Part shown: piece after piece, positions 775 to 26,852 of the stretch
Numbering within the stretch: the stretch's first letter is position 1
How the letters are laid out: each line of letters starts with the position of its first letter
From: a virus
Lineage: Duplodnaviria; Caudoviricetes
Direction: 5' to 3' (one strand)
IMG/VR virus record: IMGVR_UViG_3300037424_003009
Coordinates: 1-26,852 of that record
DNA length: 26,852 bases
Position numbers and translations under genes: made by a program
The notes under the pieces: model-generated
What the model saw: only the letters and a program-made list of their open reading frames with translations
The model's database searches: none
Told to the model about the DNA's origin: nothing

Positions 775-804
775 TTGACAGTGTCCGCTGGTTGGGGCTA
801 TCTT
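775..804 (+). promoter_or_regulatory. sigma70-type promoter of the c4-ant transcript
   Basis: Perfect -35 TTGACA (775-780), 18-bp spacer, -10 TATCTT (799-804). Confidence 0.75.
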
Positions 805-810
805 GGTCTC

Positions 811-899
811 GTCACGGCAAAATCCGTGACCGGGATTCGAAGCCCGAACCATAACGGCGGACACACCGCCCCAGCAGTTTTGGCGGTTTTTTTGTGTCC
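811..899 (+). promoter_or_regulatory. C4 upstream target leader (a1/b1) with conditional terminator
   Basis: Hairpin GTCACGG/CCGTGAC (811-830); a1 TTCGAAG (836-842) in the loop of CGGG/CCCG; b1 AACGGC (853-858); stem ACCGCC/GGCGGT (865-887) followed by a T-run. Confidence 0.75.
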
Positions 900-922
900 A
901 CAGCATGGCCAGCGCATTTTTT

Positions 923-998
923 GGGCGGGCCGTGCGGGGAGCCCTCGGGCTCGCCGGTTTGCCGTTTGGCCGGTCTTCGAACCCGCACGGTTCCGCCC
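923..998 (+). ncRNA. c4: C4-type antisense RNA (P1 c4 / P4 CI-like)
   Basis: Closing stem 923-938/982-998; hairpin GAGCC-CTCG-GGCTC; stem GCCGG/CCGGT with loop TTTGCCGTTTGG (b'); single-stranded CTTCGAA (a', 975-981). Both boxes have complements upstream and downstream. Confidence 0.85.
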
Positions 999-1002
999 TT
1001 TT

Positions 1003-22832: not shown

Positions 22833-23420
22833 ATGAAGACGGCGACCGAATATAAAGAACAGTTTAAGGCCTTGCTGCCCCCTGGGCGGTTATGGGACGC
22901 GCTGCGGGCTGATGGCAGCCTGGCCGACGACCTGGTGGCGGCCCTGGCTGAGGAGTTTGCCAGAGTGGATGGCCGGGCCGTGGATCTACTGGCCGAGGTT
23001 GATCCGCGTACAGCCATTGAGTGGCTGGCGGAGTGGGAAGAGTGGGCTGGTTTGCCTGACGTCTGCTCCGGCGCCTTGACCACGCTGCAGCAGCGCCGTG
23101 CTGCCTTGCTGCAGAAGCTGACTGCCACCGGGGGGCAGAGCCGCGCCTATTTTGTAGAGCTTGCCGCCTCCCTTGGTTACGCGGTTGACATTGAGGAGTT
23201 TCGGCCGTTTACCTGCGTTACGGCCTGTGAAGAGCCCCTTTATGACGAAGAGTGGTGGTTTACCTGGCGGGTCAATGCCCCGGAGCAAACGATCATTGAT
23301 TTTACCTGCGAGAGCCCCTGCGAGGAACCGTTGCGGGCCTGGGGTAATAAGCTGCTGGAGTGCGTCATCTTGGCCGGCGCGCCAGCACACACACACGTTT
23401 TATTCGGATATGGAGGATAG
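22833..23420 (+). CDS. baseplate protein, YmfQ/DUF2313 family (Mu gp48-like)
   Basis: LLPPGRLW, EVDPRTA, EWEEWAGLPD, GGQSRAYF, LECVI...PAHT. Confidence 0.92.
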   Translation: MKTATEYKEQFKALLPPGRLWDALRADGSLADDLVAALAEEFARVDGRAVDLLAEVDPRTAIEWLAEWEEWAGLPDVCSGALTTLQQRRAALLQKLTATGGQSRAYFVELAASLGYAVDIEEFRPFTCVTACEEPLYDEEWWFTWRVNAPEQTIIDFTCESPCEEPLRAWGNKLLECVILAGAPAHTHVLFGYGG

Positions 23421-23422
23421 TA

Positions 23423-23731
23423 ATGCATAGAGTTGACACAGCGACAGCCGTAACAGAGATACCGGCCGTTGAACCGGCCGGCACCCCCGGCTATTTCACC
23501 AAAGGCAGCCCGGCAGCCGGGCAGCAGGCCACCGTTCCCGGGGCCGATTTTTTTAATATGATACAGGAAGAGCTGGTCGGGATCTTGACCGCCGCCGGCA
23601 TGACGCCGGATCAGGACAAGGACGACTTTGGCCAGCTGGCCGTGGCGGTTAAGCGGTATGTCGACACCACGTCCGCCGTTACCTACCGGCTCTCCATCGA
23701 AAACGGCGTACTCACCCGAACCGAGGTATAA
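23423..23731 (+). CDS. short tail-fibre stub: baseplate-attachment N-terminal domain only (102 aa)
   Basis: MHRVD...GYFTKGSPAAGQQAT...FFNMIQEEL...QLAVAV, typical of Mu gpS-type fibre N-termini; SD GGAGG. Confidence 0.8.
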   Translation: MHRVDTATAVTEIPAVEPAGTPGYFTKGSPAAGQQATVPGADFFNMIQEELVGILTAAGMTPDQDKDDFGQLAVAVKRYVDTTSAVTYRLSIENGVLTRTEV

Positions 23732-23735
23732 AAAA

Positions 23736-24059
23736 ATGTACGGATACCCAAAACAAATAGCCACCCGCACCGACGCCGAGTACCTGCTCGGCTACCTGGG
23801 CAGCCCCTGGGCCACCCCGGAAAACATCCAGCGCGGCCTCCTTTTTTTTGAGGGCATGCTGGCCCATGCCAAAAGCTATGTTTTTGACCGCAACCTGGCG
23901 GAGGGGGAAGAGCCTGATCCAGATTGCATTGTGCTGGTTCAGGAGGACGGCACCCGCAGGCAGGAAGCGCTGGCGGATGACCCGGCGGCGCTTATCTACC
24001 GGATGGGCTATACGGTTGCCGAAGTCGAAGCGATCATCACCCAAATCAAGGAGGCCTAA
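23736..24059 (+). CDS. hypothetical protein (107 aa), candidate fibre/receptor-binding adaptor or chaperone
   Basis: MYGYPKQIATRTDAEYL...IYRMGYTVAEV; fills the gap between the stub and the DGR target. Confidence 0.75.
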   Translation: MYGYPKQIATRTDAEYLLGYLGSPWATPENIQRGLLFFEGMLAHAKSYVFDRNLAEGEEPDPDCIVLVQEDGTRRQEALADDPAALIYRMGYTVAEVEAIITQIKEA

Positions 24060-25118
24060 ATGCAAGGCGATAAAATAATCATTCCGGCCTCTGCTGCCGG
24101 GTTTGTGTCTATTTTCGGCAACATCAGCAAGGGCACCGGCGACACCGTCAACTTGCCCGAGGGCATGTGCAATATCGGCGGCAACGGCTATGGCTATCTG
24201 CTGGCCCCGCAAAGTTCATGGAATCCGCTCACCGCGGGCAACAATGATGGCTCTTTTGCCTCTTTGGCCCTGGGAGACGATATCTATATCTACGCCTGCC
24301 GCCACAGCAGCGGCACGGCGGCCTGGGTGGCCTCTAAAAACTCCACGGTGCCCACCGGCTACGATGCCGACACCTCGCGCAAGATGGGGGGTTTCCATGT
24401 CGGCCGCTACCGGGGCGTGGAGAACCGCTACTCCACTAGCTATGTGCCGGTGGTGCAGATCCTGCCCGGCTCCTGCTGGGACGTGGGCCACCGGCCCACC
24501 TGCGATCCGTCCGGCATGGTTGAGGTGATCCCCGGCAGCATGTGGGCGGATATTTACTTGAACTCTGTGGGCTCCGGGGTCTGGCCCAGCATCGTGCCGG
24601 TGAGCAAGTACGGTGCCACCCTGATCCGCGACAACACCTATGCCCGGATCGATCTGCACCAGATCATCAACAACGCCGGCAAGCGGTTGCCCACGCCGGA
24701 AGAATTTTTGCGCTACGCGGAAGGTGCTCCAGCGGGTCTGGACGGCTCCAACGACCAGGCCTGGTCAATGACCACTAACACGGGCCCCACCACGGCAGGC
24801 GGGGTGGCCAAGGCGGTGAGCCAGTACGATGTTGTCGATGCCGGCGGCAACCTGTGGGAGTGGCTGGATTCCCATTATGACCTGGGCGACTACAACGGCA
24901 GCGTGACCCCTTTTGCCTGGGATAATGTCGTGGTCGATGTGGGCCCAGACAGCGCCATTCCCAGGGGCTACGTGTACCGCGCGAGGTGGCAAGCCTTCCT
25001 CGGTGGCGGCCATTGGTACGAGGGCGTGCGCGCGGGTGCCCGCTGTCTGCATTCCAATACGGATCCGTGGTTTGCCGGTGGCTATGTGGGTTTGCGGGGC
25101 GTCTGTGACTCCCTGTAG
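24060..25118 (+). CDS. mtd: DGR target, Mtd-like receptor-binding protein with C-terminal CLec-fold variable region (352 aa)
   Basis: PTGY...SRKMGGFH, DPSGM...WADIYL, GKRLPTPEEF, GNLWEW, GGHW...GAR...GLRGVCD resemble Bordetella BPP-1 Mtd as I recall it; SD AAGGAGG. Confidence 0.9.
   Translation: MQGDKIIIPASAAGFVSIFGNISKGTGDTVNLPEGMCNIGGNGYGYLLAPQSSWNPLTAGNNDGSFASLALGDDIYIYACRHSSGTAAWVASKNSTVPTGYDADTSRKMGGFHVGRYRGVENRYSTSYVPVVQILPGSCWDVGHRPTCDPSGMVEVIPGSMWADIYLNSVGSGVWPSIVPVSKYGATLIRDNTYARIDLHQIINNAGKRLPTPEEFLRYAEGAPAGLDGSNDQAWSMTTNTGPTTAGGVAKAVSQYDVVDAGGNLWEWLDSHYDLGDYNGSVTPFAWDNVVVDVGPDSAIPRGYVYRARWQAFLGGGHWYEGVRAGARCLHSNTDPWFAGGYVGLRGVCDSL
24970..25109 (+). repeat. DGR variable repeat (VR), 140 bp
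   Basis: Ungapped match to 25497-25636 with 15 mismatches. Confidence 0.97.
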
Positions 25119-25473
25119 CCTGACCCCTGATGAAGCCCCGCGACAGCGGGGGTTGGTGTTGCTGGCCAAGGCGGAGCGGCTGCTGGCCGATCTGGGGCCG
25201 GCCATCGACAAGATCCCCCGGGCCCAGCGGTACCGCTACGCTGCCCGCCTGGAGGAGGCATTGTGGCAGCTGGTGGCCCTGGTCATCCAGGCCGCCGCCA
25301 GCGGTCAAAAGAGCAGGATATACCGGCTGGACGAACAGATCCGGTATCTCCATGCGCTGCTGCGCCACGGAGCCGACCGGAAGCTGATCGGGGCCAAGAG
25401 GGTGGGCGATGCCGCCGGCCAGCTTGGCGAGATCGGCGCCATGGTCGGCGCCTGGCGCCGGCGGTTTACGTAA
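25105..25473 (+). CDS. avd: DGR accessory variability determinant (Avd); start uncertain (GTG 25105, TTG 25153 or GTG 25156)
   Basis: Basic helical protein with KIPRAQRYRY, IYRLDEQI, LGEIGAMVGAW; lies between target and TR. Confidence 0.88.
   Translation: MTPCSLTPDEAPRQRGLVLLAKAERLLADLGPAIDKIPRAQRYRYAARLEEALWQLVALVIQAAASGQKSRIYRLDEQIRYLHALLRHGADRKLIGAKRVGDAAGQLGEIGAMVGAWRRRFT
25136..25151. promoter_or_regulatory. DGR homing hairpin/cruciform downstream of VR
   Basis: CCCCGC-GACA-GCGGGG: GC stem with GRNA-type 4-nt loop, 17 nt after the target stop. Confidence 0.8.
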
Positions 25474-25496
25474 GGGCAGGGTGGGGTTTTCAACGC

Positions 25497-25636
25497 ACGT
25501 GAACCACGCGAGGTGGCAAGCCTTCATCGGCGGCGGCAATTGGAACGAGGGCGTGCACGCGGGTGCCCGCTGTCTGAATTCCAATGCGAATCCGTGGAAT
25601 GCCAATGGCAATGTGGGTTTGCGGGGCGTCTGTGAC
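25497..25636 (+). repeat. DGR template repeat (TR), 140 bp
   Basis: 27 adenines, 9 AAY codons in the target frame; between avd and RT. Confidence 0.97.
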
Positions 25637-25811
25637 CACCGGTTTTTTTCGAGAGGTCGGCGCTGGAGCGCCGTCACCAAGTACCCTCCAGGGGTCAGCC
25701 CACCAAGCCTGGTCCTGCCTGACAGCAGGCCGAATATCAAAAAAAGACTGCGGCGCGCGAGTAGCCCAGGCGAAAGCCCGCCGTGGCCACCTTTTTTCAA
25801 GGCATCATTAT

Positions 25812-26852
25812 ATGGGAAAGCGACACAAGAACTTGATCAGCCGGATCATCGACTGGGACAACCTGCTTAAGGCCCATTACCAGGCCAGGCGCGGCAAGCG
25901 CCAGCGCCACGAGGTGATCCGCTTTGAGGCCGACCTCTGGCTTGAGCTGGGGCGCCTGCAGATGGAGATGCTGTGGGGCACCTACCACCCCGGCCGCTAT
26001 CGCACCTTTATGATTTTCGAGCCGAAACGTCGGGAGATTGCCGCGCTGCCCTACCGCGACCGGGTGGCCCAGCACGCCATCTGCAATATCTGCGGCCCGA
26101 TCTGGGACTTGGCCATGATCTCCGACACCTACGCCTGCCGACCGGGCAAAGGCACCCATGCCGCCGCCGACCGCTGCCAGAGATGGCTGCGCGACATGGC
26201 CAAAGCCAGGCGCCCGGCCTGGCAGCTCAAGATGGACGTCAGCCGCTATTTTCCCAGCATCAGCCACACCCTGGCCCGGCAGGTGGTGCGCCGCAAGATC
26301 TCCTGCCCCGCCACCCTGCATCTGCTTGACACCATCATCACCTCCACCGCGGCCAGCGCTGCTGGCGGGGTGGGCATACCTGTGGGCAACCTCACCAGCC
26401 AGTGGATAGCCAATTTGGTGGGCAACGAGCTCGATCAGTGGGCCAAGCGCCGGCTGCGCCTCAAGCGCTATATCCGCTACATGGACGACATGGTCTTTTT
26501 ATGCTGGAGCAAGCAGGAGACCCTGGCGGCCCGCGCCCTGTTTGCGGCCAAACTGGCCGAGATGGGCATGACCTTCAGCAAGACCTCTGTGCTGCCCGCC
26601 TCCCGCGGCCTCAACTTCGTCGGCTACCGCATCTGGGCCGACTACCGCCTGCTGCGCCGCCAGTCCATCATCACCATGCGCCGGAGACTGAGGACGCTGC
26701 GCTGTCAGCTTGCGGCCGGAGTGATCAGTCTTGATCGGGCACAATCCGCCGTTGCGTCTTGGGTGGCGCACACCCTCCACGCAGATGGTTGGAGGGTCCG
26801 GACGGCTGTACTGGCTCGGGCGGCTTTTTGTCGGAAGAAGGAGGGGGAGTGA
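25812..26852 (+). CDS. DGR reverse transcriptase (346 aa)
   Basis: FEPKRREI, YRDRVAQHA, YACRPGKGTH, LKMDVSRYFPSI, GIPVGNLTSQWIAN, YIRYMDD, NFVGY; intact to TGA 26850-26852. Confidence 0.97.
   Translation: MGKRHKNLISRIIDWDNLLKAHYQARRGKRQRHEVIRFEADLWLELGRLQMEMLWGTYHPGRYRTFMIFEPKRREIAALPYRDRVAQHAICNICGPIWDLAMISDTYACRPGKGTHAAADRCQRWLRDMAKARRPAWQLKMDVSRYFPSISHTLARQVVRRKISCPATLHLLDTIITSTAASAAGGVGIPVGNLTSQWIANLVGNELDQWAKRRLRLKRYIRYMDDMVFLCWSKQETLAARALFAAKLAEMGMTFSKTSVLPASRGLNFVGYRIWADYRLLRRQSIITMRRRLRTLRCQLAAGVISLDRAQSAVASWVAHTLHADGWRVRTAVLARAAFCRKKEGE

Follow-up and report, generated by a model that had tools for sequence, protein, structure and literature searches.

The provirus record IMGVR_UViG_3300037424_003009 (Duplodnaviria; Caudoviricetes), analysed over its whole length of 26,852 nucleotides (nt) and referred to here as the window, is rated 68 % complete, lacks the early region and ends with a reverse transcriptase (RT) gene behind the tail genes of a Mu-like myovirus. 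Which protein does this terminal cassette diversify, how would the diversified protein be held on the virion, and does the cassette stand in for the invertible host-range segment of phage Mu? The evidence leads us, with high confidence, to propose that the tail module of this Mu-like myovirus prophage closes with a BPP-1-type diversity-generating retroelement (DGR). It likely diversifies the receptor-binding tip of an Mtd-like adhesin, and a short fibre stub, encoded separately, is predicted to plug this adhesin onto the baseplate. The element is a genuine and complete DGR of the BPP-1 type, with the order target, avd, template repeat (TR) and RT, and comprises the following features:

24060–25118, plus strand: DGR target, a 352-amino-acid (aa) Mtd homologue with β-sandwich and C-type lectin domains (PF21916; phmmer to Mtd structures, E 1e-18)
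24970–25109, plus strand: variable repeat (VR) with 16 variable codons, target residues 306 to 350 (TR/VR alignment)
25094–25118, plus strand: G/C stretch and VR end resembling the initiation of mutagenic homing (IMH) site, where the VR/TR match stops (ending as in the BPP-1 VR; presumably functioning as in BPP-1)
25136–25151, plus strand: DNA hairpin with a 6-bp GC stem and a GACA (GRNA) loop (−10.0 kcal/mol; relatives −8.7 to −14.0)
25156–25473, plus strand: avd, start codon uncertain (NF033474, 94.2 bits vs cut-off 80; PF22296)
25474–25484, plus strand: upstream strand of an RNA duplex predicted between avd and Sp (avd:Sp, 'cPRT stop'), with 25699–25710 as partner strand (structure prediction)
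25497–25636, plus strand: TR with 27 adenines and 9 AAY codons (repeat search and alignment)
25637–25811, plus strand: spacer RNA (Sp), structured, in which GGTCAGCC is conserved and A25697 probably serves as priming nucleotide (covariation; priming role by analogy to BPP-1)
25812–26852, plus strand: reverse transcriptase of the DGR (346 aa), with which the record ends (PDB search, residue check, tree)

The VR has in the past been rewritten from the TR in an adenine-specific manner. The ungapped alignment of both repeats spans 140 bp and contains 15 mismatches. Of these, 13 are located at TR adenines (13/27; hypergeometric P 2.4e-9) and changed to T (five), G (five) or C (three) in the VR, while the two remaining differences are a silent one at 25004 and an Ala to Thr exchange at 25059. 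The nine in-frame AAY codons allow 15^9 (~3.8e10) variants and all 16 variable codons 5.9e14 proteins, and no substitution of an adenine in the TR can generate a stop codon. A preliminary description, made from the letters of this DNA alone, had reported the same coordinates, mismatch and adenine counts, AAY codons and absence of stops, all of which could be reproduced. It had also proposed a scan for additional VRs; TR/VR is the sole long repeat in the window and no second VR was found there (best other score 13 vs 118), while the absent early region could hold one.

The RT is most similar to Brt of BPP-1 among PDB entries (8ub7; E 1.8e-65 vs 2.4e-12 for group II), displays the motifs VGNLTSQ and YMDD as well as D142, and retains the Brt residues K29, F66, R74, I76, A78, D138, G182, S186, Q187 and YMDD, with V replacing I181. 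According to the accessible part of PMC7826257, R74 and I181 promote adenine mutagenesis and [I/V/L]GxxxSQ is the DGR motif. In a tree of 32 rows, which included three group II intron RTs and no retron RT, the RT of the window falls into a 15-row clade (support 100/99) together with that of Chromohalobacter phage YPCBV-1 (OP380511), a phage published as Mu-like and DGR-bearing (PMC9769972). All DGR rows are split from the three group II RTs at 100/100, with long branches meeting near that split. The DGR assignment of the preliminary description, which had named grouping with group II introns or retrons as the outcome that would speak against it, is hence upheld by an RT that groups with DGR RTs and away from the three group II RTs. 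Identity as a group II intron RT was rejected (VGxxxSQ rather than QGxxxSP; 346 aa vs maturase length; TIGR04416 at 103.5 bits vs cut-off 300), as was identity as a retron RT, retron models scoring far below cut-off. At the locus of the closest RT relative (76 % identity), a single deletion has removed most of avd together with the 5' portion of the TR (L001:9678-9822); this is either a broken DGR or an assembly error.

The remaining parts of the cassette, described earlier as intact, are so with qualifications: the RT motifs and the avd score agree with that description, whereas the avd start is ambiguous and the hairpin contains only six pairs. Candidate starts of avd are GTG 25105, CTG 25120, TTG 25153, GTG 25156 and TTG 25159, the likeliest being GTG 25156 or TTG 25159; the frame is open, but devoid of the ATG/GTG overlapping the target stop that most relatives possess. 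A frameshift, suspected from an out-of-frame ATG at 25130, was rejected, since the relatives use the same reading frame and the letters are identical in four sequencing runs. DGR hairpins are described, in the accessible part of PMC3240598, as GC-rich structures following the VR, with a stem of 7–10 bp and a GRNA loop. The GACA loop of the window agrees with this, the six Watson-Crick pairs fall short of the reported 7–10 bp, and the energy is within the range of the relatives; the hairpin region alone is not significant against shuffled sequences (z −1.58). The 15 sequences compared share a similar fold of Sp, in which 18 of the 27 predicted pairs are accompanied by compensatory changes. Its GGTCA pairs with the 3' end of the TR, and both the template:primer and the avd:Sp duplex, which are described for BPP-1 in the accessible part of a preprint (bioRxiv 10.1101/2023.10.23.563531), can form, the latter with two mismatches. 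The predicted avd:Sp duplex of the window contains 10 bp and a 2x2 internal loop, and that of most relatives 11–13 bp, both strands changing together. By analogy to BPP-1, RT and Avd would transcribe the TR RNA into cDNA, with the spacer as primer in cis and with adenines misread, and this cDNA would replace the VR near the hairpin.

The target is a true relative of Mtd, from which the attachment domain has been split off. Its structural model (predicted local distance difference test, pLDDT, 93.9) aligns over 301 residues with residues 34–378 of Mtd (1yu0; Z 30.6; root-mean-square deviation 2.5) and contains the β-sandwich and the C-type lectin domain ending in the VR. The N-terminal β-prism of Mtd is mostly missing, the alignment beginning only at residue 34 of 1yu0. 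Judging from homology, the trimer would bind the host and its variants would shift the receptor used. Identity as an EgtB/FGE enzyme was rejected (Z 30.6 to Mtd vs 13.8 to EgtB). Eleven phage records match the target. ORF53 of YPCBV-1 (L092:6262-7311) shares 52 % identity with the Mtd-like target. It appeared in print as an auxiliary metabolic, EgtB-like enzyme, but terminates in a VR whose mismatches to the TR are all at TR adenines (14/14). The respective paper names avd and RT, and its main text does not contain 'variable repeat' or 'template repeat' (PMC9769972). This indicates that the 'auxiliary metabolic' gene of YPCBV-1 is the DGR target adhesin; mislabelling of this kind can inflate the number of metabolic genes counted in phages. 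An EgtB-like label is also carried by gp18 of Vibrio phage VP58.5, encoded just before avd. Annotated tail fibre genes of LR745707 and LR745708 (named Escherichia phage T7, probably constructed chimeras) share ~30 % identity with the target.

How such a truncated adhesin could be held on the tail is suggested by the genes immediately upstream:

22833–23420, plus strand: gp48-like baseplate wedge protein, last conserved tail gene before the cassette (PF10076, E 3.9e-32; 30 % identity to Mu gp48)
23423–23731, plus strand: 102-aa fibre stub, corresponding to only the N-terminal baseplate-binding part of Mu gp49 (S) (34 % identity to gp49 residues 1–75, E 2.7e-8; PHROG tail-fibre N-termini)
23684–23728, plus strand: 15-residue motif at the C-terminus of the stub, predicted to act as a plug for the Mtd trimer, with residues 94–102 in the modelled interface (motif test and complex model)
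23736–24059, plus strand: 107-aa Mtd companion gene, likely an assembly chaperone or adaptor (co-occurrence with Mtd-type targets)

The order after gp48 is thus stub, companion, target, avd, TR and RT, the stop codon of the latter being the end of the record. Across relatives, the gene upstream of the companion varies with the tail type: it is gp49-like here and of other types in loci L081 and L002, and those of L003 and L082 presumably possess a P2 gpH-like N-terminus. All 17 representative anchors of this kind share the 15-residue motif at their C-terminus. On leave-one-out, all 17 were recovered, each scoring above at least 99 % of background ORF (open reading frame) ends, with five scoring low (2.7–7.1 bits). 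The top 23 of 9,562 ORF ends were all such anchors (17 from the training set, 6 near-copies). In one relative (L084), the anchor is a separate ORF with 68 % identity to residues 4–50 of BPP-1 Mtd, i.e., its β-prism region, and carries the motif at its end. In others, anchor and Mtd are fused (L007, L010, L012; also P0020, P0022, P0034 and P0040, i.e., four of five longer homologues examined), and these fusions lack both the motif and the short N-terminal extension of Mtd.

A complex model of three stubs with three N-terminal halves of Mtd places stub residues 94–102 on Mtd residues 1–11, 42–47 and 85, with a score of 0.75 vs 0.00 for the best control, at least 97 % contact agreement between runs and partner pLDDT of at least 70. 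In the calibration, 116 of 157 solved complexes and 2 of 215 mismatched pairs attained the mark of 0.75; custom alignments and trimers were used for the complex, unlike the calibration, which counts against the docking. The model supports docking of the stub motif on the N-terminus of Mtd, which is put forward as a prediction: the gp49-like N-terminus of the stub would bind the baseplate and its last nine residues would pair with Mtd residues 1–11. The stub would then stand in for the β-prism, by which Mtd of BPP-1 presumably attaches to the fibre (accessible part of PMC10743442).

The preliminary description had regarded the split fibre as unusual. A separation of fibre N-terminus and DGR target is already in print for Pseudoalteromonas phages ACA1/ACA2 (accessible part of PMC10612066), whereas a shared docking motif was not found in the literature searched; most subscription papers lay outside the coverage of these searches, so that absence from print is not established, and within the same coverage no paper turned up on bbp4, on attachment via the Mtd β-prism or on Mtd with a Mu-like baseplate. 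The new part is the shared plug motif on a split fibre, a modest addition that is more useful than the element itself. We somewhat favour the more general idea that Mtd-DGR cassettes represent plug-and-play host-range modules, in which a 15-residue C-terminal peptide on any baseplate-fitting fibre N-terminus (Mu-type, P2-type or others) docks the hypervariable trimer of Mtd with no long fibre in between; the 107-aa companion, which has no recognised fold, would complete the kit. If true, this would explain the spread of one DGR lineage over unrelated tail types. Docking of Mtd on unrelated tails by a short terminal peptide would moreover name the missing link between adhesin and virion, testable in cultured YPCBV-1.

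The 107-aa companion has no match in Pfam, PHROG or NCBIfam, and belongs to a family of 307 clusters. Its model (pLDDT 92.4) reaches at best Z 6.0, to generic helical bundles. Foldseek retrieved no PDB match and Atlas hits remained under 0.9, which does not make the fold new; in BFVD, a single match to an uncharacterised myovirus protein was obtained. Among 176 scanned sequences (window included), whose loci had been located by way of RT, target or gp47, 28 contain the companion; 27 of these have an Mtd-type ORF as well, and in the remaining one the contig ends within the target. Four single-protein scans for the family yielded no new phage record. The companion is kept in L081, which encodes two Mtd copies and gave no RT match, and also where anchor and Mtd are fused, and is therefore regarded as a partner of Mtd itself, most likely its assembly chaperone. 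Assistance in folding or assembly of Mtd would be the most tentative step of the proposed mechanism. In L081, the companion is followed by its two Mtd genes in tandem, the tips of which differ (L081:10001-12179); no RT match was obtained in the 43-kb record, and the pair possibly represents fixed products of a lost DGR. Identity of the companion with the DGR accessory protein CH1 was rejected, as the companion has 107 aa and is located beside avd, whereas CH1 proteins have 160–169 aa and are restricted to DGRs without avd, according to the accessible part of PMC5758913.

The window harbours the late half of a Mu-like myovirus, i.e., Mu-type terminase, portal, head, neck, sheath, tube and baseplate through gp48, with Pfam matches in Mu order (Mu gp27, portal, F, I, T, gp36, gp37, sheath, tube, gp41, gp44-gp48). 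The MuA transposase domain (PF09299) was not found in the 68 % complete record, as expected because the early region is missing; a longer contig of 46,715 bp is recorded for the target. PF09299 is present in three of four cassette-bearing relatives with Mu-type baseplates, and YPCBV-1 also has MuA; it is present in none of five relatives carrying the same cassette without a Mu-type baseplate, which are thus not Mu-like by this test. The earlier designation of the phage as transposable consequently rests on its relatives, the record lacking the early region. The DGR cassette is likely the final module before the right end of the genome, since contigs from sediment runs X1 and X2 stop 122 and 55 bases past the RT stop and YPCBV-1 ends 64 bases past its RT. 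In Mu, the slot after gp48 is occupied by S, U, U', S' and gin. The same slot is occupied by the cassette here, and the G-segment (S, U, S', U', gin) and the cassette would serve the same task of switching the host-binding tip, in Mu by inversion between two fixed alternatives and in the DGR by open-ended point mutation.

Two of the competing explanations concern the genes flanking the target. As a 102-aa fragment of the 504-aa Mu fibre, the stub resembles a pseudogene, and the split fibre could thus be a broken gene or an assembly error; this reading, of negligible probability, is refuted by the conservation of the split, which recurs in the plaque-forming isolate YPCBV-1 and in 16 representative relatives, and the sequence is identical in several runs, with strong ribosome-binding sites on each of stub, companion and target. 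That the companion serves the RT as a hitherto unrecognised accessory factor of the DGR, and is not a partner of Mtd, is rather improbable, although fusions of its family to the C-terminus of DGR-type RTs (four clusters with a Pfam RT match plus one RT-like fragment, among 150 matches listed) count against the chaperone assignment and allow for a role in retrohoming. The gene also lies behind the RT in L108 and vir525, and bbp4, directly behind brt in BPP-1, is a weak match (9 bits). On the other side, the 13 of 80 RT-found loci that carry the gene are the same 13 that carry an Mtd-type target (these loci being related and not independent), and L081, rated 100 % complete, keeps the gene with its two Mtd copies. 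Beyond this question, P0206, P0233, P0255, P0257 and P0244 are DGR-type RTs with the 107-aa family fused at their C-terminus, P0206 containing an additional intervening segment of ~110 aa that by eye resembles the small ORF which follows the RT in L108 and vir525. Genes of 82 aa are located behind the DGR RTs of BPP-1 (bbp4, L094:6968-7216) and of L181 (vir525_51, L181:7618-7866), and vir525_51 matches the companion family at 18 bits. At its lower score, bbp4 was not accepted as a companion homologue; if it were homologous, the prototype DGR phage BPP-1 would also possess a companion.

The other two explanations address the history and the present state of the element. The preliminary description had placed the DGR at the locus where Mu uses gin, which holds with respect to position, and had considered it to be in place of the G-inversion system. 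Such a replacement in an ancestor of the phage would agree with the shared slot directly after gp48 and with the homology of the stub to the constant part of S, but appears very unlikely. It is not established, because the closest DGR-free tail relative (L099; gp47 68 %, stub 64 % identity) possesses a plain short fibre of 230 aa, one more ORF and a methylase-like gene, without any invertase or other resolvase-family gene in a complete Mu-like record. Among 72 loci (71 found with gp47 plus L097, many with short flanks), a Gin-like gene is present in the fetched flank of five, all with gp47 of 34–36 % identity, an RT match in five and both in none. No remnant of gin, U or the inverted segment was detected in the window, nor any match to Gin or gp50 better than E 1 or to Com or Mom. 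Current activity of this copy had been described earlier as probable.

Activity is evident in the family: in five of five near-identical relative pairs, target-gene differences fall mainly on TR adenines in the VR (14/14, 14/16, 15/24, 12/13 and 11/17). In the copy of the window, the VR is letter-identical in contigs of the sediment runs X1-X4 and shows no adenine-restricted variation there; two of these runs possibly represent the source sample, and rare variants are lost in contigs. Run X5 contained a diverged relative, and X6, X7 and X9 yielded short pieces, none of those displayed allowing a usable comparison of the VR. Several further observations count, together with this identity, against present competence. 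The ribosome-binding site of the RT is weak (−3.0 vs −5.3 or stronger in 13 of 15 others), the avd:Sp duplex with its two mismatches is no better than shuffles (40/200 as stable), the avd start and the 6-bp hairpin are slightly weaker than the signals of relatives, and the terminal branch of the RT is longer than in its three sisters (0.30 vs 0.08–0.12), with dN ~2x theirs and dS similar. The DGR could therefore be real and this copy dormant or at the onset of decay in a resident prophage, the VR representing a frozen record of past activity. This possibility, which we regard as the less probable one and which concerns present activity only, being compatible with the identity of the element, would also agree with the two non-adenine VR/TR differences that are still uncorrected and with the strong decrease of homing reported, in the accessible part of PMC3240598, upon shortening of the BPP-1 stem by 2 bp. 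On the other hand, all frames are unbroken, the three private changes at otherwise invariant RT columns are typical (0–11 in 11 relatives), relatives with stems of at most six Watson-Crick pairs show VR turnover (L004/L005, L007/L010, L086-L088), and rare variants cannot appear in contigs. On balance, this copy is probably competent at present.

The genomic context, earlier thought to be unusual, has precedents. YPCBV-1 displays the same order, gp46-gp47-gp48-stub-companion-target-avd-TR-RT, at the right end of its genome, with 63 % (RT), 71 % (avd) and 32 % (companion) identity to the window, and 23 of the 42 window ORFs find matches in the same order; it is nevertheless a separate phage, most structural proteins being 26–56 % identical. 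BPP-1 (mtd-avd-TR-brt) shares the cassette order, the Mtd fold, the RT residues, the GRNA hairpin and a similar VR 3' end (RT 41 %, target 31 %), but its Mtd carries a β-prism of its own on a 508-aa fibre without the motif. In the window, the β-prism is mostly gone, the fibre is reduced to the 102-aa stub and the hairpin is located within the 5' part of the avd frame. According to the accessible part of PMC5883640, Mushuvirus mushu is a Mu-like myovirus replicating by transposition and carrying a DGR. Its avd and RT likewise follow the gp48 region, with an RT of ~30 % identity and a Hoc-like protein instead of Mtd as target. The hankyphage is transposable and its DGR mutates a tail fibre (accessible part of PMC12135933), the RTs of hankyphage and other transposable DGR phages being distant. 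DGRs also occur in Desulfovibrio piger prophages with Mu-like proteins (accessible part of PMC12724379). ACA1/ACA2 and VP58.5 are, like the phage of the window, myoviruses with fibre N-terminus and DGR target as separate polypeptides, but have P2-like tails, targets absent from the 11 phage records matching the window target and no clear companion homologue (9 bits or less). The DGR of the window thus adds one more example to a known class in a known setting.

At the opposite end of the window (798–1000 and 905–1981), a C4 antisense RNA, together with its a1/b1 target and a match to isrK, was detected ahead of a Bro-N antirepressor gene, placing a C4/antirepressor control module within a Mu-like phage.

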